A DNA stretch of 64,000 nt. It comes from Eubacteriales bacterium. Its GTDB lineage: Bacteria; Bacillota; Clostridia; Oscillospirales; CAG-272. The notes below the pieces were generated by a model that was not told where the DNA came from, searched no databases, and saw only the letters and a list, made by a program, of their open reading frames with translations. The translations under genes and the position numbers were made by a program. Positions 5,101 to 49,854 of this stretch are shown piece by piece. The DNA is taken from assembly GCA_045587445.1 (NCBI GenBank), contig JAZNCH010000036.1:41490-105489 (forward strand), read 5' to 3'. Within the stretch, counting starts at the first letter, position 1. Every line of letters starts with the position of its first letter.

Positions 5101-6944
5101 CAGCCGAATTTGGTGATAGCGTATATTCCGGAGTGTCTGATTCCTCTACTCTTGTTGGAGAAAAATGTGTGAAGCTTGTTGGTGAATTTGAAGACCAACA
5201 GTATAATGATAATAAATATTTTATTTACACAAACTACCAGGTAGATTATTATGATCTAACTCAAGCTACTGGATGTCCGGTCATAGAATATTATAAATCA
5301 GGTTCGAGTAACGAGAGATATTATTCTACTATATTTGAGAGAATTATGGGAGGAACTTCTCCGGATAAGTATATTAAATTCGTAGAAGCAGGTGCTACAA
5401 CCTCCAACTATACAGAAATTAAAGTAAGACCCGGTATGAAGTTTGCAGATCTTCTTGCTATAGAAGGTTTGATGTTCCATACTGATTACTCCCTTACCGG
5501 GTATTACCCAAAAGTTCTTGATTACGATTTATTTACAAAATTCGACTACGCTTCTGAATCTCCCAATGCTTTTGAATTTTATCTTGCAAAAGAAGATGGT
5601 ACTGCCGGCGAGAAGATAGAAACAGTTCCCGCAGACCGCAATCAGAAGATCGTAGTTAAGTCAGGCGTAGTTGAGCAAGGCGTTGTTTACTCTAAGGCTT
5701 CGTTGCTCAGCTTTGAAGGCGTCGAAGTAAACGGTACAGTAACAAATGCAGCATCTGACGTAACAGTTCAGCTTATTAGGGACGGTGAAACAGAAGCAGC
5801 ATTCGAAAAAACAGTAACACCTGGAGATGACGGTACTGCAACATATGCAATCGACTTCGTAACCGCAGGCACATACACATTGAAAGTTACATCTGCAGGT
5901 CGCGTACCTTATACAAAGGAAATTACTGTAGCAGCAGCGGCTGTAACAGAAAATGTTGAGCTTGTTAAACCCGTACTTGACGTCAAGTTTGGACACAACG
6001 TTTCATTTGGTAATAGCTTCTCTTTAGTCTACGCAGTTCCTGTTGAGATGCTTGAAGGCTATAGCAACATTCAGCTTGTTGTAGAAAAAGATATATATGA
6101 TGAAAAGATCAGTAACAGTGTAATTGTAGGAACAGAAGTTACCACATTGTCTCCTACTTCCAACAACTATGATGCCGGTGGTAAAATCTGTTACAGATTC
6201 GAATATACTGGTCTATATGCGAGAATGCTAAGCGATGGTATTCGTGCAATATTAAAGGCAGAAAAAGACGGTATAGTATACGAAAGTGCAGTGGATGAAT
6301 ACAACCTTAAGACGTATGCATATAACCAGTTAGATAAATCTAACTCGAATACGTTCAAGAGACTTCTGGTAGATGTATTGAATTACTGTTCAGCAGCGCA
6401 AATTAGAAGCGAGTATAGAATAGATGCACTTGTAAATGCAGACTTAACAGAAACGCATTTGTCTTATTCAACAGGTACGTATAACCCAGTAACAGCAGAG
6501 GCTGATAAAAAGAATACTCTTGAAGTAGGCAAAACTATAGAAACATTCGGAAAGAATATTACATTTGGTAACAGTATTGTGGCAATGTTTGCAATGGATC
6601 TTGGTGCTTATGGCGATGATTTAAGCGGACTTGTGCTTAACATACAATACGTGGATAAGGATGATGTTCCTCAGAATGTCAATATAACAAGCGATAAGTT
6701 TGAATATAGAGAAGATTTAGAAATGCATTGTGCATACTTGGATACCTTGAAAGCGGCTGAACTTAGAAATGTAATGACTATAAAAGTTCTACATAATGGT
6801 GTTCAGGTAAGTGATGAGTTAACGTATAGTGTTGAAGCCTACGTTGCAAAAAAACTTTCATCAACTGACCAACAATTTGTTGACTTGCTAAAAGCTATGA
6901 TGGCTTACAGTGATAGTGCGGTTGCATATTTCTCAGAAAAATAA
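2175..6944 (+). CDS. giant secreted protein (1589 aa): signal peptide, cohesin-like N-terminal module, beta-helix-like GGxF repeat core, Ig-like domain, duplicated C-terminal module
   Basis: Signal peptide MKKFSKLFWVALVVAAVLACTAIGVFA/AE. Repeats ISGGIFTNNVYLGS, ITGGQFNARLYFGS, ITNGTFCAGVYGGS. GGAGGG RBS. No LPXTG, SLH, dockerin or TM anchor seen. Confidence 0.85.
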   Translation: MKKFSKLFWVALVVAAVLACTAIGVFAAETVSTAVVYGTSTEVAENENFSVDFDFRNNNTKVECGKITLTWNSNKMTATNISKADALNGAQFGFKIEEGKAVIAWAGSNITAAEGELFTVDFANKGIANDGYATVDITVDNFGYTEGFVAKELKKDVKANTVFATGEGFSGDMPYNGTDPVEFLNGALEYAATTGLDVNVTVNSEMAFTQDATIGNAETYTEEAGTVYISATLGQDGEPVTGIKIYADVIVDFYGKVNFNNILIGNTQYKYGETPATTPEEFNSTENKIKMQDINTGGCLQFTKGMGTFGHAYNESTGYGYIDIYPDTYALKVSADGQTLETYSETYAIHLAGHVTTYTGYYYTATGNYYDSNVTVETPELIIRGNSTVTRVFGGVCYAKNNPLSGPTNIDILDGAKVSENLRGGSFNAPTHVNGVDIEINTTGSVKNFVLGHEQENVETNYNNVEYKVTIIKGTIGEATSGFCGYKAKAGTARNCNFVYDIQGGTIQSLVCTGMYTNNSMNSMAIEGEVEINISGGIFTNNVYLGSYLNYDYKTEPTNSHQVIDKLVRDIDITGGQFNARLYFGSCINAPDNSKHAGASDITITNGTFCAGVYGGSRFMGSDGEHTGETTITFQGKNGSLIDLRGSQVAGGSTFEYEYTGANGTTNCQRNYHVGNTTIYLKDIVNANTFGWTDNMSIVGTFFGGSILDGVTGSADDRHEHKGHSKIIVQRSIIGDNAKRFYAGSRLDGDYNVHSGNSTFIVDANTGYDATTGEETPGENGWARIVDYIFGGCLVNGYLEEAYAKYTDITSSKVAQLGKSAVRLIGPEDYIATDYNHALNLVAGVTCGGANHYGSWVPRLRHTYDSEVYIENTVKGYARLVAGPYHSNRPPSGEVDRVPTSRMIVNGTYDSDYDVYAGGEVNVNNKEAATYITNTALILMPKSNLARTPYIGLANMGNPASLTQQGDQLVEVHSGSAEFGDSVYSGVSDSSTLVGEKCVKLVGEFEDQQYNDNKYFIYTNYQVDYYDLTQATGCPVIEYYKSGSSNERYYSTIFERIMGGTSPDKYIKFVEAGATTSNYTEIKVRPGMKFADLLAIEGLMFHTDYSLTGYYPKVLDYDLFTKFDYASESPNAFEFYLAKEDGTAGEKIETVPADRNQKIVVKSGVVEQGVVYSKASLLSFEGVEVNGTVTNAASDVTVQLIRDGETEAAFEKTVTPGDDGTATYAIDFVTAGTYTLKVTSAGRVPYTKEITVAAAAVTENVELVKPVLDVKFGHNVSFGNSFSLVYAVPVEMLEGYSNIQLVVEKDIYDEKISNSVIVGTEVTTLSPTSNNYDAGGKICYRFEYTGLYARMLSDGIRAILKAEKDGIVYESAVDEYNLKTYAYNQLDKSNSNTFKRLLVDVLNYCSAAQIRSEYRIDALVNADLTETHLSYSTGTYNPVTAEADKKNTLEVGKTIETFGKNITFGNSIVAMFAMDLGAYGDDLSGLVLNIQYVDKDDVPQNVNITSDKFEYREDLEMHCAYLDTLKAAELRNVMTIKVLHNGVQVSDELTYSVEAYVAKKLSSTDQQFVDLLKAMMAYSDSAVAYFSEK

Positions 6945-9656: not shown

Positions 9657-10046
9657 TTACTGAGCTGTTGTTGATGCTGTAGTTTCAGCAGTTGTTTCAT
9701 CTTTTGTAACTTCTGCACTTTCTTCGGGATCGTTCTTTACAGTTTCTTCAACAGTTGTGTCGGGAGCGTCAATGTTTTCGTTGAAGTGGTCATCGGGGTC
9801 GATGTCCTTCTGGATAACGAACATAACAAGTACTATAACAACAAAAACTATACCAACGATTGTTGTAAGTTTAGCGAGAGTCTTCTCCCAAGTCTTGCCC
9901 TTTGTTTTGCCAAAGAAAGTATCAGAGCTGCCACCGCTAATAGCGCCCATACCCTTTGTTTTGCCTTCCTGCATAAGTACTGCAATTACGATAAATACGG
10001 CGGCTACTAAAAGTATAACCCCCAAAATAGTTTCCAATACAGTCAT
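9657..10046 (-). CDS. secG: preprotein translocase subunit SecG with an acidic C-terminal extension
   Basis: Two TM helices flank a GGSSDTFFGK loop, which is typical of SecG. GGAGG RBS. Confidence 0.8.
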   Translation of the reverse strand: MTVLETILGVILLVAAVFIVIAVLMQEGKTKGMGAISGGSSDTFFGKTKGKTWEKTLAKLTTIVGIVFVVIVLVMFVIQKDIDPDDHFNENIDAPDTTVEETVKNDPEESAEVTKDETTAETTASTTAQ

Positions 10047-26687: not shown

Positions 26688-28160
26688 ATGAAAAAATTTG
26701 CAAAACTTTTGGTTGTAGCTCTTTCAGTTGCAATCATCGCATCCTTGTTTGCAGTAAGCTCTTCAGCTGCAGAACTTGTTGACCCCAACACACTCCAGCC
26801 CGGAAGTGAAAATGTTTATTTTATCAAGGATGCTCCCAGAGACGAAAACAATAAGATTGTTGGAAAACTCGAAGGTGACGGAACAGGTTCCGATGCTGAT
26901 AACCCCTTACAGCCTGTGGACCACCAAGACTTCGATGTCAATGCTACGTATCCTAAATGGCATCTCCAGACAGCTTTCTATCAGGCAACAGAACTTTTGA
27001 AGGATACAGGCGGAACAATCGTTATCTGCGGTCCCGTATTTTTCGGTATTGACGAAAGCTACGGCTCCGGCCCTTCTACAAGAGACGTATTCACAGCTAA
27101 ATTTGGCAAAAATACAATCAAGATTACTTCTGTTTACAATGGTGTTGACTACCGTGAAACAGCAGGTGCTAAGATTATTCTTGAATCTCCCGCAGAAATC
27201 GGTATGTATGGTCAGTCGATTTGGGAAAACGTTGATATAGCTACAGCAAGTACAACTCGTGTAATTTCTTTCAGTAACTATGCTACACTTATCGGTGAAG
27301 GCGTTAACTGCTATCCTACAGACGAAGCATTTGAGGGTGTTGCAGCAAACTACGTAAGCCTTTCGGCAGGTCACAGATATGAAGGTGGTGTTGACCTTAC
27401 AACAAACCTTGTTGTTAAATCCGGTACTTACAACGTAATTGCATCAGGTATATGGGGCGTTAACAACCAGAAATCTGTTGCAGATGACGGTACAATTAAA
27501 TGGACTAATAACCTTGAGGGTAATACAAACGCTAACGTGGTAATCGAAGGCACAACAACCGTATACGGTGAAATCCTCGGTACAAACAAATATGTAGCTG
27601 ATTTCTCAGGTGATTCTACAATTACAATTAACGGCGGTAAGTTTGAATGTGATATCAACATGGTTGGCAAGAGTGGTATGTTGAACACAGATGGTAAAGT
27701 TACTCTTAAGATTAACGGCGGTGATTTCGCAGGTGCATGGTCTATCAATAATGCTGTAGCAGGTGCTACAAACAATATGCCCGCATTGTCCGTACTTGAC
27801 TTCTCAGGTTGGACAGGTGAACTTTCCGATCTTGCAAATGCATACGGTGTTATTGCAACGGAATTTTCTGAAATTAAATTGCCTGCAGGTGTGACAGCCG
27901 AACAGGTATTGGCAGCAGCTACAACAGCTACTGAACCTGCAGATACAGAGCCTGCAGAAACACCCGCAGAAACAACTCCTGCAGAAACACCTGCAGAAAC
28001 AAAGGCTCCTGTTGTTGATGAAACAAATGCTCCTGTTGTTGATGACGGCGAAGAAGGCGGCTCTAACATGACAATTATTATTATTGCAATCGTTGCAGTA
28101 GTAGTAATCGCAGGTGTAGTAGTTGGTATCGTTCTTGCAAAGAAAAAGAAATCAGTTTAA
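26688..28160 (+). CDS. membrane-anchored surface protein (490 aa), paralogue of the beta-helix-like core of the giant protein
   Basis: Signal peptide MKKFAKLLVVALSVAIIASLFAVSSSA/AE. INGGKFECDINMVG and INGGDFAGAWSI repeats. PAET-rich stalk, C-terminal TM helix plus KKKKSV stop-transfer. Confidence 0.8.
   Translation: MKKFAKLLVVALSVAIIASLFAVSSSAAELVDPNTLQPGSENVYFIKDAPRDENNKIVGKLEGDGTGSDADNPLQPVDHQDFDVNATYPKWHLQTAFYQATELLKDTGGTIVICGPVFFGIDESYGSGPSTRDVFTAKFGKNTIKITSVYNGVDYRETAGAKIILESPAEIGMYGQSIWENVDIATASTTRVISFSNYATLIGEGVNCYPTDEAFEGVAANYVSLSAGHRYEGGVDLTTNLVVKSGTYNVIASGIWGVNNQKSVADDGTIKWTNNLEGNTNANVVIEGTTTVYGEILGTNKYVADFSGDSTITINGGKFECDINMVGKSGMLNTDGKVTLKINGGDFAGAWSINNAVAGATNNMPALSVLDFSGWTGELSDLANAYGVIATEFSEIKLPAGVTAEQVLAAATTATEPADTEPAETPAETTPAETPAETKAPVVDETNAPVVDDGEEGGSNMTIIIIAIVAVVVIAGVVVGIVLAKKKKSV
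27933..28045 (+). repeat. in-frame tandem repeats encoding the Pro/Ala/Glu/Thr stalk
   Basis: About five 12-15-nt units of CCTGCAGAAACA (EPADTEPAETPAETTPAETPAET), then two copies of GCTCCTGTTGTTGATGA (APVVD). Confidence 0.85.
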
Positions 28161-37571: not shown

Positions 37572-38846
37572 ATGAAAATAAAAACCAAAAGAATACAATA
37601 TGAAGAATTAAGCGAAATAAAGAGGCCGAAGCATTTTAATCCAAAGAAGCCGAATATATTTTTCAGAACGCTTGTAAGGCTACTGTCGCAGTTTGATATG
37701 TGGGCGACAAAATTTTCATATACGAAAACCGATATGGAAAAGGCGGGAAAAGGTCCGTATCTTATACTAATGAATCACTCAAGCTTTATTGATTTTGAAA
37801 TTGCGAATAAGATTTTGTACCCGACACCTTTTTGCTTTGTTGCAACAACCGATGCTTTTGTAAGCAAGGCTTGGCTTATGAGACAGATTGGATGTATACC
37901 GACACAAAAGTTTGTAAATGACGTTACGCTTATATCAGATATGGCTTACGCTTTGAATGAGCTGAAAACAAGTGTTCTTATGTATCCGGAAGCGGGATAC
38001 AGCTTTGACGGTTGTGCTACTACGTTACCTCGCGGCTTGGGAAGGCTTGTGAAGAAGCTTGATGTTCCGGTTCTAAGCATACACACTTTTGGAGCATTTT
38101 CACGCGACCCGCTTTATAATTGTTTACAGAAGAGAAAAGTTAAGGTGAGTGCCGATATTTCGTGTATTCTTTCTCTTGATGATGTAAGAGAAAAGTCTGT
38201 TGCCGAAATAGATGAGGTTTTGGAAAAGACATTTACTTTTGATAATTTTGAGTGGCAGTATGAAAACAAGGTCAAGATAGACGAGACGTTCCGTGCAGAC
38301 GGACTGAACAGAATATTGTATAAATGCGCCCATTGCCAAACAGAAGGAAAAATGGAGGGCAAGGGAACAAAGCTTATATGCCACGAATGCGGCAAGGAAT
38401 ATGAGCTTGACGAGTACGGTAAATTAAAAGCATTAGACGGAGAAACAGAGTTCGGTCATATTCCGGATTGGTACAATTGGGAGAGGGATTGTGTAAGACA
38501 AGAAATACTTGACGGCAGTTATAAGCTTGACGTTGACGTAGATATATGCGCACTGGTTGATTACAAGGCCTTATATAAAATAGGAGAAGGACACTTAGTT
38601 CACGATAAGAACGGTTTTTATTTGACAGGTTGCGACGGAAAGCTTGAATATACCCAAAAGCCGCTTGTTTCGCACAGTGTTAACTCCGATTATTATTGGT
38701 ATGAGATAGGCGACGTGATAAGTATCGGTAACAGGGAGACTTTATATTACTGTTTTCCGAAGACGAAGGGCGATTTTGTTGCAAAGACAAGACTTGCGGC
38801 TGAAGAAATGTACAGTCTTGTAAGACCTAAAAGAGGGAAAATATAG
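37572..38846 (+). CDS. PlsC-family lysophospholipid acyltransferase fused to a C-terminal zinc-ribbon-containing domain
   Basis: HX4D motif NHSSFID and a PEAG block. CAHCQ...CHECG zinc ribbon at about aa 250-275, followed by about 150 aa of unknown function. Confidence 0.7.
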   Translation: MKIKTKRIQYEELSEIKRPKHFNPKKPNIFFRTLVRLLSQFDMWATKFSYTKTDMEKAGKGPYLILMNHSSFIDFEIANKILYPTPFCFVATTDAFVSKAWLMRQIGCIPTQKFVNDVTLISDMAYALNELKTSVLMYPEAGYSFDGCATTLPRGLGRLVKKLDVPVLSIHTFGAFSRDPLYNCLQKRKVKVSADISCILSLDDVREKSVAEIDEVLEKTFTFDNFEWQYENKVKIDETFRADGLNRILYKCAHCQTEGKMEGKGTKLICHECGKEYELDEYGKLKALDGETEFGHIPDWYNWERDCVRQEILDGSYKLDVDVDICALVDYKALYKIGEGHLVHDKNGFYLTGCDGKLEYTQKPLVSHSVNSDYYWYEIGDVISIGNRETLYYCFPKTKGDFVAKTRLAAEEMYSLVRPKRGKI

Positions 38847-38961
38847 ATTTAGATACGATTATATTTATAAAAATCAGCTTGAAAGTTGTGTTGTATTAGC
38901 TTTTTTGGGTTATATTGTTGAATGTTTTTTTGAAAAATATAAAAAAAATTTCAAATACTTC

Positions 38962-38990
38962 TTGACTTTAGCACAGGAAAGTGGTAAAAT
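38962..38990 (+). promoter_or_regulatory. sigma-A promoter of the T-box leader
   Basis: TTGACT (38962-38967), 17 nt, TAAAAT (38985-38990), preceded by TGg. Confidence 0.65.
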
Positions 38991-38996
38991 GCTGAC

Positions 38997-39262
38997 ATAA
39001 TTTAAATGCGTTGACGAAAACAAGTAGATAACGTCGAGACTCTTACAGAGAATTGTCGGTTGGTGCGAGACAAAGACGACGATGTTATTGAATACATTTC
39101 CGAGCGGCTTGTCCGAATTTGTACAGTAGGGTAAGACGGGGACGCCCGTTACAGCGTAAGAGTCTAAGGATAAATATTGTCCCGGACTTAATGAGAACCA
39201 ACTGAGGTGGTACCACGGTGTAATAATCGTCCTCTGCGATTTTTTTTCGCAGAGGACTTTTT
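38997..39262 (+). promoter_or_regulatory. T-box riboswitch leader, specifier codon UAC (tyrosine)
   Basis: GA-motif region UGACGAAAACAAGUAGA. AG bulge AGAGA (39047-39051). Distal loop GGUGCGAGA. Specifier loop GAA-UAC-A (UAC 39093-39095). T-box core GGUGGUACCACGG (39206-39218). Mutually exclusive terminator. Confidence 0.85.
39229..39262 (+). terminator. T-box-controlled terminator
   Basis: 11-bp perfect stem GTCCTCTGCGA/TCGCAGAGGAC, T7 loop, then TTTTT. The CCTC of the 5' arm can instead pair with GAGG just upstream of the T-box core (antiterminator). Confidence 0.85.
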
Positions 39263-39277
39263 GTTTTGTAAAATTGG

Positions 39278-39304
39278 GAGAATATGGGCGGAGCACATAT
39301 TCTC
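39278..39304. repeat. degenerate member of the GGGCGAAGCCC hairpin family
   Basis: GAGAATATG-GGCGGAGCA-CATATTCTC. Compare 7236-7268 (GAGGATATGGGCGAAGCCCATATCCTC). Confidence 0.5.
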
Positions 39305-39362
39305 TATGGTTGTTTATTAAATTAGAAAAATATTAAGCTTTAGATATAGAAGGAGAAAGAAA

Positions 39363-41000
39363 ATGGTAATAGCGGATTTTTTGGAAAGAAATGCGCGTCT
39401 TTACGGAGATGAAACGGCATTGGTTGAAATAAACCCTTCCGAAGAAAGAGACAATGCGGTAACTTGGAGAGATTTTAGTCTTATTGAGAATACAAGCCCC
39501 GACCTTCCTTACAGAAGAGAAATAAATTGGAGACAGTTTGATGAAAAGGCGAACAGATTTGCAAACCTTTTGCTCAGCCGAGGTATCAAGAAAGGACAGA
39601 AAGTAGCGATACTGCTTATGAACTGTCTTGAATGGTTGCCGATATATTTTGGAATATTGAAATCGGGTGCTCTTGCTGTTCCCATGAATTTTAGATATTC
39701 GGGCGATGAAATTGAATACTGTCTTGATTTGGCTGACGTTGACGTTTTGGTATTTGGTCCCGAATTTACAGAGCGACTTGAGACTGTTCCGAATGCACTT
39801 GATAGACTTAAGTTTAAATTCTTTGTGGGAAGAGACGTTCCTGCATTTGCTGAAAGCTATCTTGAGCTTGTAACTTATACCTCAACAAAGGCACCTCCCG
39901 TAATGGTGGGAGAAAAAGACTACGCGGCAATATATTTTTCATCGGGTACGACAGGTAGACCGAAGGCTATTTTGCATAATCACAGAGCATTGGTTTGTTC
40001 TTGCGAAACCGAGCAGAATCACCACAGACAGTCGAGAGATGACGTGTTTTTGTGTATTCCTCCCCTTTATCATACGGGTGCAAAAATGCACTGGTTCGGA
40101 AGCTTGCTTTCGGGAAGCCGAGCAGTACTTCTAAGAGGTGTGAAGCCCGAGTGGATATTGCGTGCGGTAACAGAAGAAAAATGTACTATTGTATGGTTAC
40201 TTGTACCGTGGGCACAAGATTTGCTTAATGCAGTTGAAGCGGGTAAGATAAATATTGGCGATTATATGCTTGACCAATGGAGACTTATGCATATTGGTGC
40301 TCAGCCTGTACCGCCCAGTCTTATAAACAGGTGGAAGAAGAAATTCCCGAATCATGAGTATGATACGAATTACGGTTTGTCGGAATCTATTGGTCCCGGT
40401 TGCGTACATCTCGGTGTTGAGAATATTCATAAGGTAGGTGCAATAGGTAAGCCCGGATATAACTGGGAAGCGAAGATTGTTGACGAAAACGCTAATACCG
40501 TAGAACAGGGCGAAGTCGGAGAACTTGCTGTTAAGGGAGACGGCGTAATGCTTTGTTACTATAAAAACGAAAAGGCGACAAATGAAGTTTTGAAGGAGGG
40601 TTGGCTGTTTACCGGAGACGTTGCAAGAATGGACGAAGAGGGCTTTATCTATCTTGTTGACAGAAAGAAGGACGTTATTATTTCGGGCGGTGAGAATCTG
40701 TATCCCGTTGAAATTGAAGACTTCTTGAATACTAATACAAAAATAAAAGACGTTGCAGTTATTGGTCTTCCTGATGAGAGACTTGGTGAAATTGCAGCAG
40801 CGGTTATTGAATTTAAAGATGGAATGACGGCGACAGAAGAAGAAATAAACGAATTTTGTCATGCGCTGCCGAGATATAAGCGTCCCAAGAAGCTTATATT
40901 TGCAAAAGTTCCCAGAAATCCCACCGGTAAAATTGAAAAGCCGGTATTGCGTCAGATGTATGGCGCAGGAAGACTTGTAGAGGCGCAGACTACAAAATAA
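39363..41000 (+). CDS. AMP-forming acyl-CoA synthetase (class I adenylate-forming enzyme), substrate unknown
   Basis: YFSSGTTGRPKA (A3), YHTGA, GWLFTGDVARMDEEGFIYLVDRKKDVIISGGENLYP (A8) and PRNPTGKI (A10). GAAGGAG RBS. Confidence 0.85.
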   Translation: MVIADFLERNARLYGDETALVEINPSEERDNAVTWRDFSLIENTSPDLPYRREINWRQFDEKANRFANLLLSRGIKKGQKVAILLMNCLEWLPIYFGILKSGALAVPMNFRYSGDEIEYCLDLADVDVLVFGPEFTERLETVPNALDRLKFKFFVGRDVPAFAESYLELVTYTSTKAPPVMVGEKDYAAIYFSSGTTGRPKAILHNHRALVCSCETEQNHHRQSRDDVFLCIPPLYHTGAKMHWFGSLLSGSRAVLLRGVKPEWILRAVTEEKCTIVWLLVPWAQDLLNAVEAGKINIGDYMLDQWRLMHIGAQPVPPSLINRWKKKFPNHEYDTNYGLSESIGPGCVHLGVENIHKVGAIGKPGYNWEAKIVDENANTVEQGEVGELAVKGDGVMLCYYKNEKATNEVLKEGWLFTGDVARMDEEGFIYLVDRKKDVIISGGENLYPVEIEDFLNTNTKIKDVAVIGLPDERLGEIAAAVIEFKDGMTATEEEINEFCHALPRYKRPKKLIFAKVPRNPTGKIEKPVLRQMYGAGRLVEAQTTK

Positions 41001-41024
41001 GCAACAAAAACAAGGTGATACAAA

Positions 41025-42563
41025 ATGTTTATAAAAATTGCAATGCTGGTAATATTTTTTGGTACGATGATAGGTATCGGTTTATATTGCATGAAACATT
41101 CAACAGACGTTAATGGTTTTGTACTGGGCGGACGAAGCGTAGGTCCTTGGTTGACAGCTTTTGCTTACGGTACATCGTATTTTTCGGCTGTTGTGTTTGT
41201 TGGATATGCAGGGCAGTTTGGCTGGAAATACGGTATTGCAGCGACATGGGCAGGAATAGGAAATGCGATACTCGGTTCATTGCTCGCGTGGATGATACTT
41301 GGCAGACGTACTCGTATTATGACACAGCATTTGGACAGTGCAACGATGCCTCAGTTTTTTTGTAGCCGTTACAACAGTCAAGGGTTAAAACTACTGTCAT
41401 CGGCGGTAATATTTATATTTTTAATTCCGTACACGGCATCGCTTTACAACGGACTCAGCCGTTTGTTCGGCATGGCTTTTGATATACCGTATGAGGTGTG
41501 CGTAATAGTAATGTCGATATTGACTGCGATATACGTTATAGCGGGTGGATATATGGCAACTGCTATAAATGATTTTATACAGGGAATCATTATGATAGTC
41601 GGTATTATAGCCGTAATAATTGCAGTACTTAATACACAGGGCGGATTGACTGCCGCTATGGACAGTTTAAGCCAAATATCAAGCGAAGCGGAGGGAATAA
41701 AACAGGGGGCGTTAACTTCATTCTTTGGTCCCGATCCGATAAATTTGGCCGGTGTAGTTCTTCTTACCTCACTTGGTACATGGGGACTTCCGCAGATGGT
41801 GCAAAAGTTTTATGCGATAAAGAATGAAAAGGCGATAACCAAGGGCACTATTATTTCGACCATATTTGCGCTGATAGTTGCGGGTGGTTGTTATTTCCTT
41901 GGAGGCTTCGGCAGATTATTTACACCCGATACGACGGCAGAAGGTGCGATTATTTTTGACTCAATAGTACCGAATATGCTCAAAGGATTGCCCGATGTTT
42001 TGATAGGGGTAGTAATAGTTCTTGTTCTTTCAGCTTCGATGTCAACACTTTCTTCACTTGTTTTGACTTCAAGCTCTACTCTTACGCTTGACTTTATAAA
42101 AGAAAGAATCGCAAGAAACATGAATGAGAAAAAGCAAGTATTTATTATGCGTGTTTTGATAGTTATATTTATTGCTGTATCTGCAGTAATTGCGATTATT
42201 CAGCATAAGGGAAGTGTTTCATTTATAGCTCAGCTTATGGGTGTATCATGGGGAGCTTTGGCAGGAGCGTTTTTAGCTCCGTTCTTATACGGTTTGTACT
42301 GGAAGGGCGTAACAAAGGCGGCGGTTTTGGTAAATATAATATTTTCTACAATTGTTATGATTGCGAACATATTGGTAAGAGGTGTATTTCCGTCTATATT
42401 GCAGTCTCCGATAAATGCGGGTGCATTTTGTATGCTTGCGGGACTGATAATAGTACCCATAGTAAGTAGATTTACAAAGAAGCCCGATAAAAAAATGGTA
42501 GAAGAGGTATTCTCTTGCTATTCACAGAGTGTTACGGTATCCGTAAAAGAGCATATGGGTTAA
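41025..42563 (+). CDS. sodium:solute symporter (SSS) family permease
   Basis: 512 aa, about 13 TM helices, PutP/PanF-like N-terminal pattern (GGRSVGPWLTAFAYGTSYFSA). Confidence 0.75.
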   Translation: MFIKIAMLVIFFGTMIGIGLYCMKHSTDVNGFVLGGRSVGPWLTAFAYGTSYFSAVVFVGYAGQFGWKYGIAATWAGIGNAILGSLLAWMILGRRTRIMTQHLDSATMPQFFCSRYNSQGLKLLSSAVIFIFLIPYTASLYNGLSRLFGMAFDIPYEVCVIVMSILTAIYVIAGGYMATAINDFIQGIIMIVGIIAVIIAVLNTQGGLTAAMDSLSQISSEAEGIKQGALTSFFGPDPINLAGVVLLTSLGTWGLPQMVQKFYAIKNEKAITKGTIISTIFALIVAGGCYFLGGFGRLFTPDTTAEGAIIFDSIVPNMLKGLPDVLIGVVIVLVLSASMSTLSSLVLTSSSTLTLDFIKERIARNMNEKKQVFIMRVLIVIFIAVSAVIAIIQHKGSVSFIAQLMGVSWGALAGAFLAPFLYGLYWKGVTKAAVLVNIIFSTIVMIANILVRGVFPSILQSPINAGAFCMLAGLIIVPIVSRFTKKPDKKMVEEVFSCYSQSVTVSVKEHMG

Positions 42564-42602
42564 AAAATATACAAAAATGTAAAAAAGAACTTTAATATAT
42601 TA

Positions 42603-42631
42603 TTGAATATATTTTATATTTGTGATATAAT
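42603..42631 (+). promoter_or_regulatory. sigma-A promoter of the iorAB operon
   Basis: TTGAAT (42603-42608), 17 nt, TATAAT (42626-42631), preceded by TGa. Confidence 0.6.
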
Positions 42632-42694
42632 ATCAATATTATTTTTTGATAGTTCCTCCGTGGTTTAGCGGAAAGAAAGAGAGGAAAAATATAG

Positions 42695-44434
42695 ATGAAA
42701 CAGCTAATGTTGGGGAATGAGGCTGTTGCAAGAGGTTTGTTTGAGGCAGGATGTTCGTTCGTTTCAAGCTATCCCGGCACTCCCAGTACGGAAATAACCG
42801 AATGCGCGGCGAAATATGCTGAGATTTATGCAGAATGGGCACCTAATGAAAAGGTAGCTATGGAGACTGCGTTTGGCGCGGCTTTGGCAGGAAAGAGAAG
42901 CTTTTGCGGTATGAAGCACGTTGGACTTAACGTTGCGGCAGACCCATTATTCACTATATCGTATACAGGTATTAATGCAGGAATGGTTATCGGCGTGGCT
43001 GATGACCCCGGTATGCACAGCTCACAGAACGAACAGGATTCAAGACATTACGCAAAGGCGGCAAAACTGCCTATGCTTGAGCCCTCTAACTCAAAAGAAG
43101 CACTTGAGTTTGCAAAGGCGGCTTATGAAATATCCGAAGGCTTTGATACCCCTGTACTTTTGAAGATGTGCACACGTGTTGCTCATTCGCAGAGTATTGT
43201 TGAAACATCTGACCGTGTTGAAAAGGAACAGGTTGAATACGTTAAAAATCCGTCAAAATACATAATGATGCCCGGATTTGCAAAGAAAAGACACCCCATT
43301 GTTGAAGAAAGAATGGCAAAATTAGCTGAATATGCTGAAACTTCTACACTCAACAAGTGGGAAAAGGGAACCGATAATAAGATAGGTATTATTACCGCCG
43401 GAACTTGTTATCAGTACGTAAAGGAAGTTTGCGGAAACGACGTAAGTATTTTGAAGCTCGGTATGGTTTGGCCCATTTCCGAGAAGATGATAAAAGACTT
43501 TGCATCTTCCGTTGAAAAAGTGATAGTAGTAGAAGAGCTTGACGGTTTTATCGAAGAATTTTGCAATGCACTCGGTATTGTAACCGATGGCAAGAACTTG
43601 TTCTCGAACATTGATGAATTGTCTCAGAACAAGGTTGCAAAGGGACTTGGTATAGAATATACCGAGGGAGAGGCTGTAGATGCCGTTATTCCCAACCGTC
43701 CCCCCGTTATGTGTGCAGGTTGTCCTCACAGAGGGCTTTACTACGTTTTGTCAAAATTGAAGCTTAACGTTATCGGTGATATAGGCTGTTATACACTCGG
43801 TGCAGTTGCTCCGCTTAACGCAGTAGACAGCGTAATTTGTATGGGTGCTTCTATATCTGGAGCACACGGATTTAACAAGGCGAATGACGGTAAGAGCGAT
43901 AATAAGACCGTTGCAGTAATAGGCGACTCGACGTTTATGCATTCGGGAATGACGGGACTTGTTAATATTTCATATAACAATTCCAACAGTACCGTTATTA
44001 TCCTTGACAACTCAATTACGGGAATGACAGGACATCAGCATAATCCCACCACAGGATTTAACCTAAAGGGAGACCCTGCGGCAAAGGTTGACCTTGAAGC
44101 TTTGTGCCGTGCTATCGGTATTAATTCTGTAAGAGTTGTAGATCCATATAATATTGCCGAATGTGAAACAGTTATTAAAGAAGAATTGGCAAAAGAAGAG
44201 CCCTCTGTTATTATATCGAGACGTCCCTGCGCACTTCTTAAATACGTAAAACATAATTCTCCCGTAACCGTTTCGGCAGACAAGTGTAAGAGCTGTAAGA
44301 TGTGTATGAAGATAGGCTGTCCCGCGATAAGTATGGTTGACGGCAAGGCAGTAATAGATGCAACACTTTGTACGGGTTGCGGAGTATGCACACAGCTTTG
44401 CAAATTCGGAGCAATGCAGGAGGCAGAAAAATGA
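42695..44434 (+). CDS. iorA: indolepyruvate (arylpyruvate) ferredoxin oxidoreductase, alpha subunit
   Basis: MLGNEAVARG..EAG....SYPGTPSTEI N-terminus, TPP-binding GDSTF.HSG, and C-terminal 2x[4Fe-4S] motifs (CKSCKMC..GCP, CTGCGVC). Confidence 0.88.
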   Translation: MKQLMLGNEAVARGLFEAGCSFVSSYPGTPSTEITECAAKYAEIYAEWAPNEKVAMETAFGAALAGKRSFCGMKHVGLNVAADPLFTISYTGINAGMVIGVADDPGMHSSQNEQDSRHYAKAAKLPMLEPSNSKEALEFAKAAYEISEGFDTPVLLKMCTRVAHSQSIVETSDRVEKEQVEYVKNPSKYIMMPGFAKKRHPIVEERMAKLAEYAETSTLNKWEKGTDNKIGIITAGTCYQYVKEVCGNDVSILKLGMVWPISEKMIKDFASSVEKVIVVEELDGFIEEFCNALGIVTDGKNLFSNIDELSQNKVAKGLGIEYTEGEAVDAVIPNRPPVMCAGCPHRGLYYVLSKLKLNVIGDIGCYTLGAVAPLNAVDSVICMGASISGAHGFNKANDGKSDNKTVAVIGDSTFMHSGMTGLVNISYNNSNSTVIILDNSITGMTGHQHNPTTGFNLKGDPAAKVDLEALCRAIGINSVRVVDPYNIAECETVIKEELAKEEPSVIISRRPCALLKYVKHNSPVTVSADKCKSCKMCMKIGCPAISMVDGKAVIDATLCTGCGVCTQLCKFGAMQEAEK

Positions 44435-45009
44435 GCAACAATACGAAAAATATAATGATTGTCGGTGTAGGCGGTCAAGGGTCGCTTCTTGCAAGTAAGC
44501 TGCTCGGAAGATTGCTTCTTACCAAAGGATATGACGTAAAGGTTTCAGAGGTTCACGGCATGAGCCAGAGAGGCGGTTCTGTTGTAACGTACGTTCGTTT
44601 CGGAGACGAAGTATATTCACCGGTTATTGACGAAGGTGAAGCGGATTTTGTAGTATCATTTGAACTTCTTGAAGCGGCAAGATGGACGAAGTTCTTGAGA
44701 GAAAACGGAAAGATTATAACCAATACCCAGCAGATTAATCCTATGCCGGTTGTTACGGGAGCGGCAGAATATCCTGCGGAGCTTGTTGTAAAAATGAAGG
44801 CTGACGGATTTAATGTTGACGCGATAAACGCACTTGAACTTGCAGAGACGGCAGGTTCATCAAAGGCCGTTAACCTCGTGCTTATGGGCAGACTTTCAAA
44901 GTATTTTGACTTTACCGAAGAAGAATGGATGAAGGCAATCGAGGAAAGCGTTCCTCAAAAATTCTTGGAAATGAACAAAAAGGCATTTGCACTGGGAGCA
45001 AATGCGTAA
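44431..45009 (+). CDS. iorB: indolepyruvate ferredoxin oxidoreductase, beta subunit
   Basis: The ATG overlaps the iorA stop (ATGA). IVGVGGQGSLLASK..G.......EVHGMSQRGGSV signature. Confidence 0.85.
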   Translation: MSNNTKNIMIVGVGGQGSLLASKLLGRLLLTKGYDVKVSEVHGMSQRGGSVVTYVRFGDEVYSPVIDEGEADFVVSFELLEAARWTKFLRENGKIITNTQQINPMPVVTGAAEYPAELVVKMKADGFNVDAINALELAETAGSSKAVNLVLMGRLSKYFDFTEEEWMKAIEESVPQKFLEMNKKAFALGANA

Positions 45010-45027
45010 AAAAGGGGTTTTGTATAA

Positions 45028-46335
45028 ATGGAAAAATACTATCAGCCGGAGATAGAAACAGCTACTCGGGAAGAAATGAAAGCGCTTCAAAGTGAGCGTC
45101 TTATAAACACAGTAAAAAGAGTGTATGAAAAGGTTCCCCATTACCGTAAGAAGATGGAGGAGATGGGTGTTACTCCTGATGACATTAATAGTGTATACGA
45201 CCTCTGTAAGCTTCCGTTTAACTATAAGCAAGATTTGCGCGATACATACCCTTACGGAATGTTTGCAGTACCGATGAAGGACGTAGTAAGACTTCACGCG
45301 TCAAGCGGTACGACAGGAAAGCAGATAGTTGTTGGCTATACGCAGAACGATATGGACTTGTGGGCTGACTGTTGTGCCAGAGCGTTTACGGCGGCAGGCT
45401 GTACTGATGAAGACTTAGTTCACGTTTCATACGGTTATGGATTGTTCACCGGCGGACTTGGCGCTGACGGGGGCGCGAGAAGAATAGGCGCGACGGCAAT
45501 ACCCGTATCAAGCGGAAATACCCAGAGACAGATAACTATTTTAAAAGATTTCGGTTCGACTATACTGTGCTGTACTCCCTCTTATGCATTGCATATAGCA
45601 GAGACACTTCACGATATGGGTTATACGAAGGACGATATAAAGTTAAAGGCGGGAATATTCGGAGCTGAACCTTGGACAAACGAGATGCGTCATCAGATTG
45701 AGGAAATGCTCGGACTTAAGGCTTTTGATATATACGGCTTGACTGAGATAATCGGTCCGGGTGTCGGCTTTGAATGTGAAGAACAGACGGGGATGCATAT
45801 AAACGAAGACCACTTTATCGTTGAGGTAATTGACCCCGATACAGGTGAAGTACTTCCCGAGGGGACACAGGGCGAGCTTGTATTCTCTTGCATAACTAAA
45901 GAAGCATTTCCGATACTCAGATACAGAACGAGAGATATAGGGGTTATTACAAGAGAGAAATGCTCTTGCGGCAGAACGCTTGTGAAAATGACAAAGCCGA
46001 GAGGCAGAAGCGACGATATGCTTATTATCAGAGGTGTTAACGTATTTCCATCGCAGATTGAGACCGTTCTTATTGAAAAGGGATATACTGCAAACTATCA
46101 GATTGTTGTTGACAGAGAAAACAACTTTGACAGCATTGAAGTGCGCGTAGAGCTTTCACCCGAAAACTTCCGCGATACAGTTAAGGGACTTGATAAGCAG
46201 GCAAAAGAGCTTGCAGAGGGACTTAAGGTTATTCTCGGTATTAACGCTAAGGTAATATTGATGGAGCCTAACTCACTTCCTCGTTCCGAAGGCAAGGCCG
46301 TTAGAGTAATTGACAAGCGTAAGCTTTTAGACTAA
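45028..46335 (+). CDS. paaK: phenylacetate-CoA ligase family protein
   Basis: [28 protein letters not shown] and [19 protein letters not shown] blocks typical of PaaK. Confidence 0.85.
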
Positions 46336-46356
46336 AATATAGGGGTGTTAAGTAAA

Positions 46357-46785
46357 ATGGTAAAACAGTTATCGGTATTTATTCAAAATAAATCGGGTAA
46401 AATAGCATCCGTTACAAGAACTCTTTATGAGAATGGAATTGACATTCGCGCTCTTTCTATTGCGGATACGGCAGATTTCGGAATATTACGTATGCTTGTA
46501 AGCGATGTTGAAAAAGCGAGATTGGCTTTGGCAAAAGAAAACTGTATCGTAAGCGTGAACGAAGTTGATGTTGTGTTAGTTCCCGACAGACCCGGCGGTC
46601 TGGCAGAGGTTTTGCAGAAGATGTCAGACGCGCATATAGATATTGAATATATGTATTCTCTTATAGACAGAGGAACAGAAGATGCATATATGGTATTCCG
46701 TTTTGCTGACGATGCCAATGTGCTTGACGTTCTTGAAGCGAACGGATTAAAGACCGTTCCCGGAGCAAAACTCGGACTTAACTGA
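46357..46785 (+). CDS. ACT domain-containing protein
   Basis: Two ACT-like halves (LSVFIQNKSGKIA..., VVLVPDRPGGLAEV...). The position after paaK is a recurrent arrangement. ATG 46357 preferred over GTG 46345. Confidence 0.7.
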   Translation: MVKQLSVFIQNKSGKIASVTRTLYENGIDIRALSIADTADFGILRMLVSDVEKARLALAKENCIVSVNEVDVVLVPDRPGGLAEVLQKMSDAHIDIEYMYSLIDRGTEDAYMVFRFADDANVLDVLEANGLKTVPGAKLGLN

Positions 46786-46807
46786 TTATAAATTGAGGTG
46801 AAATAAA

Positions 46808-47974
46808 ATGCAGGAATTAAGCAGAAAAACAAAACATTTTACAGATTCTGTTATACGCCGTATGACAAGAATCGCTATAGCGAATAACGCGATTAACTTG
46901 GCGCAGGGGTTCCCCGATTTTGATCCGCCCAAAGTTTTGACAGACAGACTTGAGGAGATTAGTCAACTCGGTCCTCACCAGTATCCTATTACTATGGGCG
47001 CACCAAACTTTAGACGTGCTTTAGCTGAAAAGTGCGGAAGATTTATGGGTAGAAAGATTGACCCCGAAACAGAGGTAGTTGTTACTATAGGTTCGACGGA
47101 AGCGATGGTAGATACTTTGTTTGCCATTACTAACCCCGGCGACAAAATAATTATGTTCTCACCTTATTTCGAGAATTATCGTGCGCAGACTCTTCTGGTT
47201 GACTGCGAGCCCATATTCGTACCCCTTATTCCCCCTGCATTCAACTACGATGCAAATGTACTCGAAGATGCTTTTAAGCAGGGTGCAAAGGCAATTCTTA
47301 TTTGTAACCCTTCAAACCCCAGCGGTAAGGTTTTTACAGAGGCTGAACTTAAGCAGATAGCAGACCTTGCTATTAAATATGATACTTACGTTATTATGGA
47401 TGAAGTTTATGAGCATATCGTATACGAGGGTCATAAGCACATCTATATGAACAGTCTTCCGGGAATGTGGGAGAGAACAATTTCTTGTAGTAGCTTGTCA
47501 AAGACCTATTCGATAACAGGCTGGAGACTTGGTTATGCTATAGCTCCTCAGCATATTATGGAAAGAATTAAGCAATACCATGACTTTAATACCGTTGGTG
47601 CGCCTTCTCCTCTTATGGAAGCGGCAGTTGTCGGACTTGAGCTTCCCGACAGCTACTATGACGAATTCGGTCAGCACTATGCTCATATGAAGAAGATATT
47701 TACCGAAGGTCTTGACAGACTCGGTATTGAATATTCCGACCCGCAGGGAACGTATTTCGTATTGGCGAATATCGGTCAATTTATGAAGAAGGGACAGAAC
47801 GACGTGGAATTCTGTGAACAGATGGCTGCCAAGGTAGGCGTTGCCGCAGTACCCGGAACTTCATTCTTTATGGAAGACGTAAGAGATATTGTAAGACTTC
47901 ACTATGCGAAGAAAGACGAGACGCTTTACGAAGCACTCGAAAGACTTGCTACAATCAAACAGAAATTAGGTTGA
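46808..47974 (+). CDS. class I/II PLP-dependent aminotransferase (YbdL / kynurenine-aminotransferase-like)
   Basis: INLAQGFPDF start motif, NPSNPSGK, and SLSKTYSITGWRLGY (PLP lysine). Confidence 0.85.
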   Translation: MQELSRKTKHFTDSVIRRMTRIAIANNAINLAQGFPDFDPPKVLTDRLEEISQLGPHQYPITMGAPNFRRALAEKCGRFMGRKIDPETEVVVTIGSTEAMVDTLFAITNPGDKIIMFSPYFENYRAQTLLVDCEPIFVPLIPPAFNYDANVLEDAFKQGAKAILICNPSNPSGKVFTEAELKQIADLAIKYDTYVIMDEVYEHIVYEGHKHIYMNSLPGMWERTISCSSLSKTYSITGWRLGYAIAPQHIMERIKQYHDFNTVGAPSPLMEAAVVGLELPDSYYDEFGQHYAHMKKIFTEGLDRLGIEYSDPQGTYFVLANIGQFMKKGQNDVEFCEQMAAKVGVAAVPGTSFFMEDVRDIVRLHYAKKDETLYEALERLATIKQKLG

Positions 47975-48031
47975 TTTTTTTCAAAAGAACTTTTTGAAAA
48001 AAGCTCTCTTGACTCTCAAAAACTTTAACTA
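47975..48031 (+). repeat. dispersed 3'-region repeat, copy B
   Basis: TTTTTTTCAAAAGAA-CTTTTTGAAAAAAG-CTCTCTTGACTCT-CAAAAACTTTAACTA, directly after the aminotransferase stop. The first part forms a 12-bp A/T palindrome. Confidence 0.7.
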
Positions 48032-48065
48032 AAAACGGCAGAGGTATTGTTCCTCTGCCGTTTTT
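48031..48065 (+). terminator. terminator of the ior-paaK-aminotransferase operon
   Basis: CGGCAGAGG/CCTCTGCCG stem flanked by A5 and T5. Confidence 0.8.
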
Positions 48066-48150
48066 GTAACAAAAATGATTACTTGTTTTAAAATACAATT
48101 TGTGCTATAATGATAGAAAGTGTTACAAAAGTATACAGTGGAGCGTTTGT

Positions 48151-49854
48151 ATGAGTAATTTTGCCGAAATTTATACCGAAGAGGGATTGAATATGCCCGA
48201 TATTCCTTGGAATATTTACCCGAGACCGCTTATGAAAAGGGATTCGTTTTATTGTTTGAACGGAGAATGGGATTTTTGTGTGTGCAAGGGTGATGAATAT
48301 ACCGAAAATGAAAAAATAACCGTTCCTTTTGCCCCCGAAACTTTGCTGTCGGGAGTGGGAATAAATTTAGACGAGGACTGTTATGATTCTTTTGTTTATA
48401 AGAAGCAATTTGTTTTACCCGAAGGGTTTAACGAAGGGAAGGTTTTGCTTCATTTTGGAGCAGTGTCGAATTATTCCGAAATAATACTGAACGGAAAAAC
48501 AGTTGGTATACACAGAGGCGCATACGATTCGTTTTTCTTTGATATAACAGACTACTTAAAGAGTGATAACACGCTTGAAGTATATGTGAAGAACATACTT
48601 CGAGACAATCTTTTGCCATACGGAAAGCAGAGCCGAAAACGCGGCGGTATGTGGTATACGCCAACCTCGGGAATTTGGCAGACGGTATGGCTTGAAAGCG
48701 TACCTGCCGAATATATAAAGAGTATTAAAACGGAAACGAAAGATAACAAAGTAATAATAAAGGCTGACGGCACAGAAAATGCAAAAGTTAAGCTGACTAC
48801 AGAAAATGGCATATCCGTGTTTGATATGTGTAACGGCGTATGCGAGATAGAGATAGACGAGCCGAGATATTGGTCGCCCGAATCCCCTTATTTATATTAT
48901 TTTTCTGTTGAGACAGAGTGTGATAAGGTTGAGTCATATTTTGCATTTAGAACTTTGGAAATAAAGAATATAGACGGATACGAAAGACTTTGCTTGAACG
49001 GTAAACCCTACTTTTTTCATGGACTGCTTGACCAAGGATATTGGAGTGACGGAGGTCTGACACCGCCGTTGCCTACGTCTTATGAAAAAGATATAATGGC
49101 TATGAAATTGTTAGGCTTCAATATGCTGAGAAAGCATATAAAGATAGAGCCTCCACAGTTCTATTATGATTGCGATAGGCTCGGTATGGTTGTTTTTCAG
49201 GATATGATAAACAACGGCGACTATAACTTTTTGAGAGATACCGCATTGCCAACGATTGGGGTAAAAAGACTTAACGATAAATATATGCACAAAGATGAAG
49301 CACCGCGAGAGATTTTTGCCGAATATATGGAAAACACGGTTGAAGTGCTGAAAGGCTACCCCTCTATTTGTTGTTGGACTATATTTAACGAAGGCTGGGG
49401 ACAGTTTTGCGGTACGGAAATGTATAAAAAGCTTAAAGAGATTGATAGTACGAGGTTTATAGATACTGCGTCGGGCTGGTTTAAGGGCGTTGAATCCGAC
49501 GTTGATTCGGAGCACGTATATTTCCGTAAAGTTAAGCTGAAAGCAGGGAAAAAACCTCTTGTGCTTTCGGAGTTTGGCGGATATTCATATAGGGTGGAGG
49601 GGCATATTTTTAATCCCGATAACGAATATGGTTACGGTAAATATAAAACGCGCGAGGATTTTGTAAAAGCGTTTTGCAATTTGTACGAGAAAGAGATAAT
49701 GCCCCTTGTAAAGCAAGGACTTTGCGCATCGGTGTATACGCAGGTATCCGACGTAGAGGACGAGACTAATGGACTGTTTACCTATGACCGCCGAGTGCTA
49801 AAGGTCAAACCCGAGGAGTTTGCACACATATCGCAGAGGCTGAAGGAGATATAA
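48151..49854 (+). CDS. glycoside hydrolase family 2 protein
   Basis: Sugar-binding, Ig-like and TIM-barrel order with WTIFNEGWG (acid/base Glu) and a later SEFGG block. Start moved to ATG 48151 (GGAG RBS). Confidence 0.75.
   Translation: MSNFAEIYTEEGLNMPDIPWNIYPRPLMKRDSFYCLNGEWDFCVCKGDEYTENEKITVPFAPETLLSGVGINLDEDCYDSFVYKKQFVLPEGFNEGKVLLHFGAVSNYSEIILNGKTVGIHRGAYDSFFFDITDYLKSDNTLEVYVKNILRDNLLPYGKQSRKRGGMWYTPTSGIWQTVWLESVPAEYIKSIKTETKDNKVIIKADGTENAKVKLTTENGISVFDMCNGVCEIEIDEPRYWSPESPYLYYFSVETECDKVESYFAFRTLEIKNIDGYERLCLNGKPYFFHGLLDQGYWSDGGLTPPLPTSYEKDIMAMKLLGFNMLRKHIKIEPPQFYYDCDRLGMVVFQDMINNGDYNFLRDTALPTIGVKRLNDKYMHKDEAPREIFAEYMENTVEVLKGYPSICCWTIFNEGWGQFCGTEMYKKLKEIDSTRFIDTASGWFKGVESDVDSEHVYFRKVKLKAGKKPLVLSEFGGYSYRVEGHIFNPDNEYGYGKYKTREDFVKAFCNLYEKEIMPLVKQGLCASVYTQVSDVEDETNGLFTYDRRVLKVKPEEFAHISQRLKEI

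Follow-up and report, generated by a model that had tools for sequence, protein, structure and literature searches.

A candidate tRNA-controlled operon for rebuilding tyrosine and phenylalanine from arylacetates in gut and rumen Clostridia

Whether indolepyruvate:ferredoxin oxidoreductase (IOR) makes gut bacteria producers or consumers of arylacetates is currently debated. This question is raised by a 64,000-nucleotide (nt) stretch of DNA from an Oscillospirales bacterium (GenBank assembly GCA_045587445.1, contig JAZNCH010000036.1, positions 41,490 to 105,489 of the forward strand), the whole of which is termed the window, in which iorA and iorB lie downstream of a T-box riboswitch with a tyrosine (Tyr) specifier. 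The T-box gives a testable regulatory signal for uncultured Oscillospirales. Positions 38962 to 48065 were read as a single transcription unit, running from a promoter through the Tyr T-box and seven genes to a terminator, and the most likely role of this operon is to rebuild Tyr and phenylalanine (Phe) from 4-hydroxyphenylacetate and phenylacetate; a probability of roughly 0.65 is given to this reading as a whole. The signals and the genes, in the order in which they would be transcribed, are as follows.

38962 to 38990, + strand: predicted operon promoter (TTGACT, 17 nt, TG-n-TAAAAT; a 10/12 match plus TG)
39002 to 39267, + strand: T-box leader (RF00230 match at 39002-39237; terminator hairpin at 39229-39257 plus a T run)
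39363 to 41000, + strand: FadD-like class I AMP-forming acyl-coenzyme A (acyl-CoA) ligase, termed lig, the first operon gene (PF00501, PF13193)
41025 to 42563, + strand: permease of the sodium:solute symporter family (SSF) (PF00474, 196 bits)
42603 to 42631, + strand: putative internal promoter, lineage specific (TTGAAT, 17 nt, TG-n-TATAAT)
42695 to 44434, + strand: iorA, indolepyruvate (arylpyruvate):ferredoxin oxidoreductase alpha subunit (TIGR03336, 726.1 bits against a cutoff of 650.9)
44431 to 45009, + strand: iorB, IOR beta subunit (NF005325, 276.2 bits against a cutoff of 230; PF01558)
45028 to 46335, + strand: PaaK-like AMP-forming arylacetate-CoA ligase of about 435 amino acids (aa) (PF14535, 102 bits)
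46357 to 46785, + strand: ACT-pair protein of 142 aa (PF19571, 82 bits; PDB 2F06, E = 1e-22)
46808 to 47974, + strand: class I aminotransferase of the KAT / YbdL / glutamine-phenylpyruvate transaminase group (PF00155, 203 bits)
48036 to 48065, + strand: intrinsic operon terminator, CGGCAGAGG-7-CCTCTGCCG then TTTTT (stem at 48036-48060)

The five genes from iorA to the aminotransferase lay where an earlier reading of the bare sequence, termed the original prediction, had placed them, and iorA and iorB overlapped in the ATGA at 44431-44434 that it had described. The strong terminator that it had claimed after the aminotransferase was also found, with a folding energy of −23.8 kcal/mol that was equalled by none of 200 shuffled sequences (z = −8.3).

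A scan covering one genome per species detected at least 576 relatives of lig. The best 80 of these were 73 to 97% identical and came from gut or rumen metagenome-assembled genomes (MAGs) labelled Oscillospiraceae, Acutalibacteraceae, Butyricicoccus/Agathobaculum, Lachnospiraceae/Acetatifactor, Christensenellales or Anaerovoracaceae; loci of lig relatives are given L-numbers. Close homologues were from MAGs labelled Faecousia, Oscillospiraceae or Clostridia, a homology search for cultured carriers returned mostly metagenomic proteins, and an exact-sequence look-up of the window ligase found no record. Gene content was counted by tblastn with the window proteins. Of 68 loci in which the sequence after lig was long enough, 66 had the order lig-(SSF)-iorA-iorB, among them loci of Oscillospiraceae, Acutalibacteraceae, Butyricicoccaceae, Lachnospiraceae and others. 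An SSF gene stood between lig and iorA in 49 of these 66 loci, the gap from SSF to iorA being about 20 to 65 nt in most; the other 17 had no SSF gene and a gap of about 25 to 70 nt between lig and iorA. As lig abuts iorA in 17 loci and the gaps elsewhere are short, lig and the ior genes would belong to one operon. The PaaK-like gene came next in 49 of 56 loci with room for it and was missing from 7. The aminotransferase followed in 11 loci and on these counts is an accessory operon member. Two variants were reduced: L004 had a minimal set of a Tyr T-box, lig, SSF, iorAB and aminotransferase without paaK, and L077 had only a Tyr T-box, lig and iorAB. The survey of gene order suggested in the original prediction thus found lig, iorAB and the PaaK-like ligase to be syntenic in dozens of species. 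The prediction had set the ior genes apart as a module beside a separate T-box unit; two independent units are ruled out by the lig-iorAB synteny, which points instead to one conserved operon.

The same counts bear on the idea that the T-box governs only a Tyr-related ligase and an SSF tyrosine transporter and that the adjacency of the ior genes is incidental. Tyr T-boxes are common before transporters (PMC2494555), a PutP-like SSF could be an amino acid carrier, and there is a promoter-like site before iorA in the window. Incidental adjacency is nevertheless very unlikely, given a synteny that extends over several families and persists at short range in the loci without SSF, and given operons such as that of L077 in which the T-box is followed by lig and iorAB alone. 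A terminator before iorA was also sought by folding the 131-nt spacer between SSF and iorA (42564-42694); none was found (z = −1.5), and T-box read-through should therefore carry on into iorA.

The promoter-like site before iorA had been proposed in the original prediction as a separate promoter for the ior genes. The site was present, but a scan for such sites found 51 when 35 were expected, so the match on its own is weak evidence. Three relatives (L001, L002 and L004) have preserved both its −35 box and its extended −10 box beside a diverging spacer, and the site is not present in L005, L006 or the majority of the other loci. A chance match was therefore rejected for the sub-lineage of the window, and we read the site as a genuine promoter that is peculiar to this sub-lineage and acts on top of T-box read-through, not as a general feature of the operon. 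It would supply basal expression of the part from ior through paaK and ACT to the aminotransferase that is independent of tRNA-Tyr. The entry steps had been predicted to be gated by tRNA-Tyr charging. The tie to tRNA-Tyr stands, but not the restriction to entry steps: with one operon and an internal promoter confined to a sub-lineage, gating by the T-box probably covers the whole pathway.

A T-box induces the genes behind it in response to uncharged cognate tRNA. The window leader was matched over its full length by the Rfam model RF00230 (model positions 1 to 219) with 122.8 bits against a gathering score of 93 (E = 1e-26). A UAC specifier for Tyr is located at 39093-39095 within GAA-UAC-A (39090-39096), the T-box sequence GGTGGTACCACGG occupies 39206-39218, and the terminator segment folds at −26.4 kcal/mol. 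The leader was therefore placed in the Tyr class of T-boxes, and antitermination by tRNA-Tyr is predicted. Leaders of related loci were found with a profile built from this leader. A full-length T-box lay directly upstream of lig in 33 related loci, and a further one is interrupted where its contig stops. Intact T-boxes include those of L037, L038 and L052, from MAGs labelled Agathobaculum and Butyricicoccus. The specifier was UAC in 19 loci as well as in the window, UUC (Phe) in 11 loci and, in 3 loci in which GAA is followed by an additional base, probably UAC, so that all 33 readable leaders would sense Tyr or Phe tRNA. The UUC of L014 was aligned by Rfam in the same register (GAA-UUC, 117 bits). 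In the ligase tree, Phe specifiers occur in at least five separate places, indicating at least five independent switches between Tyr and Phe. For two pairs of loci, L014 with L016 and L037 with L052, the leaders are 88.6% identical and differ in the middle base of the specifier. This natural alternation of UAC and UUC among orthologous leaders mirrors the classic laboratory swap of UAC to UUC in the Bacillus subtilis tyrS leader, reportedly made by Grundy and Henkin and alluded to in PMC2494555.

Two groups of altered leaders were also observed. In L007 to L013, a leader of only some 90 nt is located roughly 150 nt before the ligase (e.g., L010, 9870-9990) behind a promoter of the window type, the sequence of the operon promoter being kept in these loci. 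Stem I and Stem II are gone and the terminator remains; L011 and L013 retain GAGGTAGTACCACGG. This leader is a shortened T-box that would be expected to terminate constitutively. In L081 to L083, which represent a species abundant in the human gut (its protein P0140 is listed in 185 collection blocks), a decayed T-box-like leader with a mutated T-box motif (9750-9973; 40 to 49 bits against the leader profile) lies between a 4HBT thioesterase and the ligase.

The proteins encoded by the operon were compared with curated families and solved structures. IorA carries POR_N (PF01855), TPP_enzyme_C (PF02775) and Fer4 (PF00037) domains, and IorAB was assigned at the equivalog level to the two-subunit indolepyruvate:ferredoxin oxidoreductases (EC 1.2.7.8), with its substrates and direction predicted; no close solved structure was found for it. 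The best NCBIfam match of lig was PRK06187, a long-chain fatty-acid-CoA ligase (416.4 bits, under the cutoff of 476), and all other NCBIfam models scored far below their cutoffs. Its PDB matches, which include FadD13, FadD5, feruloyl-CoA synthetase and 4CL, are all remote, and homology gives no substrate call. We propose that lig is a (hydroxy)arylacetate-CoA ligase. The SSF permease resembles PutP and PanF at scores under their cutoffs and matches only SGLT/vSGLT in structure; it is proposed to be an arylacetate importer. By sequence the PaaK-like ligase falls among the PaaK-type (short, AMP-binding_C_2) adenylate-forming ligases, its residues 3 to 432 matching 2Y27 (Burkholderia PaaK1, E = 1.3e-135), 2Y4O (5e-131) and 4R1L (3e-118). 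It scored 560.4 bits against the TIGR02155 equivalog, below the cutoff of 646.3, and PaaK-like is therefore the best name for it. An ACT_8 open reading frame (ORF) of 142 to 143 aa follows paaK directly in nearly all loci. In the window, this ORF probably starts at ATG 46357 rather than at GTG 46345, which gives 142 aa as in relatives, and the strict pairing suggests that its product is probably an amino-acid-binding regulator of PaaK. The closest solved relatives of the aminotransferase are Rv0858c, KAT3, YbdL, KAT1, the Pyrococcus horikoshii aromatic aminotransferase 1DJU and the Thermus thermophilus glutamine aminotransferase 1V2D, and they include enzymes that act on aromatic 2-oxoacids. 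Divergence within the operon is uneven: between the window and L001, L002, L004 and L005, the aminotransferase is 97 to 98% identical, the ACT protein 44 to 72% and the SSF permease 81 to 92%.

Genes for CoA activation, IOR and transamination thus occur together in the window, as expected for salvage of aryl acids, and the following route is proposed. Uncharged tRNA-Tyr would pair with the UAC specifier and stabilize the antiterminator, allowing read-through, as the intact T-box suggests. Arylacetates of the gut or rumen, 4-hydroxyphenylacetate and phenylacetate, would enter the cell, probably via the SSF permease, and be converted to CoA thioesters by the two AMP-forming ligases, whose family is assigned and whose substrates are predicted. 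IorAB, working reductively, would combine arylacetyl-CoA with CO2 and reduced ferredoxin to give 4-hydroxyphenylpyruvate or phenylpyruvate, a direction suggested by the regulation and the gene partners. The KAT/YbdL-type aminotransferase would then yield Tyr or Phe, and the ACT-pair protein might regulate PaaK by binding an amino acid.

Three independent considerations favor the biosynthetic direction: T-boxes that sense only Tyr or Phe tRNAs induce on uncharged tRNA, two AMP-forming ligases are present with no ATP-conserving exit, and the minimal variants L004 and L077 still form a closed route. The link to aromatic limitation lies at the level of cis-regulatory sequence, in the Tyr and Phe T-boxes of the window and the 33 related loci. 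The original prediction had proposed an anabolic route from arylacetates to aromatic amino acids tied to tRNA charging; synteny, the specifiers and the lack of ATP-conserving partners support this, and the remainder of the route is inferred.

Several observations weigh against this biosynthetic reading. The ligase is nearest to fatty-acyl and feruloyl/4-coumarate ligases and passes no curated family cutoff, and the substrate of the PutP/PanF-like SSF could be an amino acid. No T-box is present in about half of the related loci, particularly those of Lachnospiraceae, and some leaders are shortened or decayed; in the Lachnospiraceae loci, no T-box was found before the operon. The base after the specifier is C (UAC-C or UUC-C) in most relatives, e.g., L016 and L021, rather than the usual purine; it is A in the window and its closest relatives. 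IOR-type enzymes are oxidative in some gut bacteria (bioRxiv 10.64898/2026.01.29.702580). In 33 loci, though not in the window, lig is immediately preceded by a gene for a 4HBT hotdog thioesterase, which could free arylacetate from the CoA ester and thereby act as a catabolic outlet. Alternatively, this thioesterase may protect the CoA pool in the way that PaaI does.

Some of these points would fit a catabolic or bidirectional operon in which IorAB oxidizes arylpyruvates made by the aminotransferase, the arylacetyl-CoA is hydrolyzed or released, the internal promoter works independently of the T-box and the ligases recapture leaked acids. The occurrence of oxidative IOR-type enzymes in gut anaerobes, the thioesterase tied to the operon in so many loci and the window's own iorA promoter, kept in three relatives, all speak for such an operon. 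We nevertheless regard it as unlikely. Domains of energy-conserving partners (PF01515, PF00871 and PF13607) were sought in the genes from 37572 to 49854 of the window and in the called genes of L081 to L083, and none was found. The window cluster thus appears to lack the phosphotransacetylase (Pta) and kinase, or the ADP-forming acyl-CoA synthetase, of oxidative Stickland metabolism, and no energy would be conserved; two ATP-hydrolyzing AMP-forming ligases would be futile, and the window has no thioesterase. Furthermore, in most species iorAB has no space for a promoter and lies behind a Tyr or Phe T-box, so that starvation would induce destruction of the very amino acid that is lacking.

Reductive assimilation might instead serve chiefly as a sink for ferredoxin electrons and CO2, or as detoxification of arylacetates, with the amino acids as a by-product. 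The chemistry does use up reduced ferredoxin and CO2, many loci are without a T-box, and the operon is widespread in fermentative Clostridia of the gut and rumen. Yet the riboswitch, where present, is always a sensor of Tyr or Phe, some loci adjoin tyrS or trpS-trpB units, and the yield is bounded by the arylacetate supply, which would make a poor general redox sink. A sink or detoxification role is accordingly considered quite improbable, and synthesis of Tyr and Phe remains the preferred function.

Why the operon should contain two ligases was left in the original prediction as a possible case of substrate specialization. All paaK-less operons with a readable T-box have a Tyr specifier (L004 and L077, and probably L071). 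In L061 and L068, the ligase is followed by a terminator, a promoter, a separate T-box and then paaK-ACT, and this stand-alone paaK-ACT unit has its own Phe specifier. paaK is present in 10 of 10 Phe-specifier operons with enough sequence and in 14 of 17 Tyr-specifier operons, numbers that are too few for significance and in which lineage effects are uncontrolled. The pattern lies in the expected direction but is suggestive only; it fits, as a weak hint, a division in which lig would use 4-hydroxyphenylacetate and PaaK would use phenylacetate.

The proposed route has clear parallels. Reductive carboxylation of phenylacetate, 4-hydroxyphenylacetate and indoleacetate has been shown in rumen anaerobes by labelling. 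Aryl-acid-dependent synthesis of aromatic amino acids in Methanococcus maripaludis needs IOR (Porat et al. 2004, as cited in PMC4162585). The window would share with these systems the sequence from arylacetate to arylacetyl-CoA, reductive carboxylation by IOR and transamination, and the two-subunit IorAB. It differs in being bacterial (Oscillospirales, with relatives in other Clostridia) and in having a single T-box operon, and it has in addition the second, FadD-type ligase, the SSF permease, the ACT-pair protein and an aminotransferase within the operon. An iorA-iorB-paaK core is shared with Bacteroides, in which IOR accompanies an assayed AMP-forming arylacetate-CoA ligase and the authors argue for biosynthesis (PMC13285125), and with Geobacter, in which the iorAB-paaK operon is listed under tryptophan biosynthesis (PMC2700814). 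The published argument from the AMP-forming ligase applies to the window too, but the Bacteroides and Geobacter clusters are without the T-box, the FadD-like ligase and the SSF permease. As cited in PMC13285125, the IOR of Bacteroides thetaiotaomicron has been linked experimentally to phenylacetate production, and its direction is still debated.

Catabolic clusters pair the oxidoreductase with Pta and a kinase or with an ADP-forming ligase, an example being HpdDEFG-HpdJ-HpdK of Clostridium scatologenes (PMC13285125), and the CD2382-iorAB-butK (aminotransferase-iorAB-butK) cluster of Clostridioides difficile is SigL dependent (PMC7438776). These resemble the window in combining an arylpyruvate:ferredoxin oxidoreductase (IOR in C. 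difficile) with an aromatic aminotransferase in one cluster. However, they gain ATP and are controlled by SigL plus an activator or are induced by tyrosine, whereas the window has AMP-forming ligases and a T-box that senses starvation.

T-box targets in published surveys comprise synthetases, biosynthesis and conversion enzymes and transporters; aromatic targets in the Bacillus cereus group are tyrS, a tyrosine biosynthesis operon, Phe hydroxylase and NhaC/NSS transporters (PMC2494555). The window operon has the same class of riboswitch, with a Tyr specifier and supply genes that would be induced on uncharged tRNA, but the T-box surveys examined list no CoA ligase, IOR or PaaK-like ligase among the targets. 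The pathway, the iorAB-paaK association and the argument for biosynthesis from IOR with an AMP-forming ligase are already published. No report of T-box control of IOR or of CoA ligases was found in the literature covered, which did not include Vitreschak et al. 2008, so that a prior description is possible. Within the literature searched, no description was found of the FadD-like ligase and SSF as conserved operon members, of the strict PaaK-ACT pairing or of repeated natural switching between Tyr and Phe specifiers in this operon.

If the biosynthetic reading is true, many abundant gut and rumen Clostridia would recycle phenylacetate and 4-hydroxyphenylacetate into protein, which would alter predictions of auxotrophy and models of cross-feeding and would affect the pools of phenylacetate, a precursor of phenylacetylglutamine, and 4-hydroxyphenylacetate, a precursor of p-cresol. 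The operon also offers enzymology a candidate new ligase specificity and a conserved PaaK-ACT pair, and riboswitch evolution a natural series of Tyr/Phe specifier switches. A broader proposal is put forward tentatively, at somewhat less than even odds: that the FadD-like enzyme is the founding member of a (4-hydroxy)arylacetate-CoA ligase family not described before, that T-box-lig-(SSF)-iorAB-paaK-ACT is a widespread system, in at least 576 species-level genomes, for tRNA-controlled conversion of phenylacetate and 4-hydroxyphenylacetate to Phe and Tyr in gut and rumen Clostridia, in which changes of one specifier base have repeatedly shifted the control from one of these amino acids to the other, and that its carriers are a significant sink for phenylacetylglutamine and p-cresol precursors.

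Further observations were made on the surroundings of the operon. The thioesterase is the first operon gene in Lachnospiraceae and lies upstream of the T-box in several Oscillospiraceae (examples are L063, 9369-9887; L010, 9452-9865; and L014, 9279-9674). In L057 (6434-9160), a tryptophan (UGG) T-box, trpS and a TrpB-like PALP enzyme are located directly upstream of the Tyr T-box operon and may form with it a small island for the supply of aromatic amino acids. A Tyr T-box, tyrS and an HMGL-like gene follow the ACT gene in four Lachnospiraceae loci, L060, L063, L075 and L080 (e.g., L063, 17548-20204). Beside the stand-alone ligase copy of L068 (3714-9787) are genes for a regulator of the LysR type, an SSF paralogue that has diverged (41% identity), an acyl-acid amido synthetase of the GH3 family and a protein with a condensation domain, which may represent a different aryl-acid pathway.

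Aromatic biosynthesis genes were sought in the rest of the window and none was found, the genes there being for housekeeping and sporulation. Two window ORFs, 2175-6944 (1,589 aa) and 26688-28160 (490 aa), had no Pfam match at E ≤ 1e-5. An ORF of 128 aa on the minus strand (38910-39296), antisense to the T-box leader that it overlaps, was rejected as almost certainly spurious. The G+C content of the window is 39%, its genes include those for Spo0A, GerA and SpoIIGA, and the position just upstream of its ligase is occupied by a PlsC-type acyltransferase gene (37572-38846).

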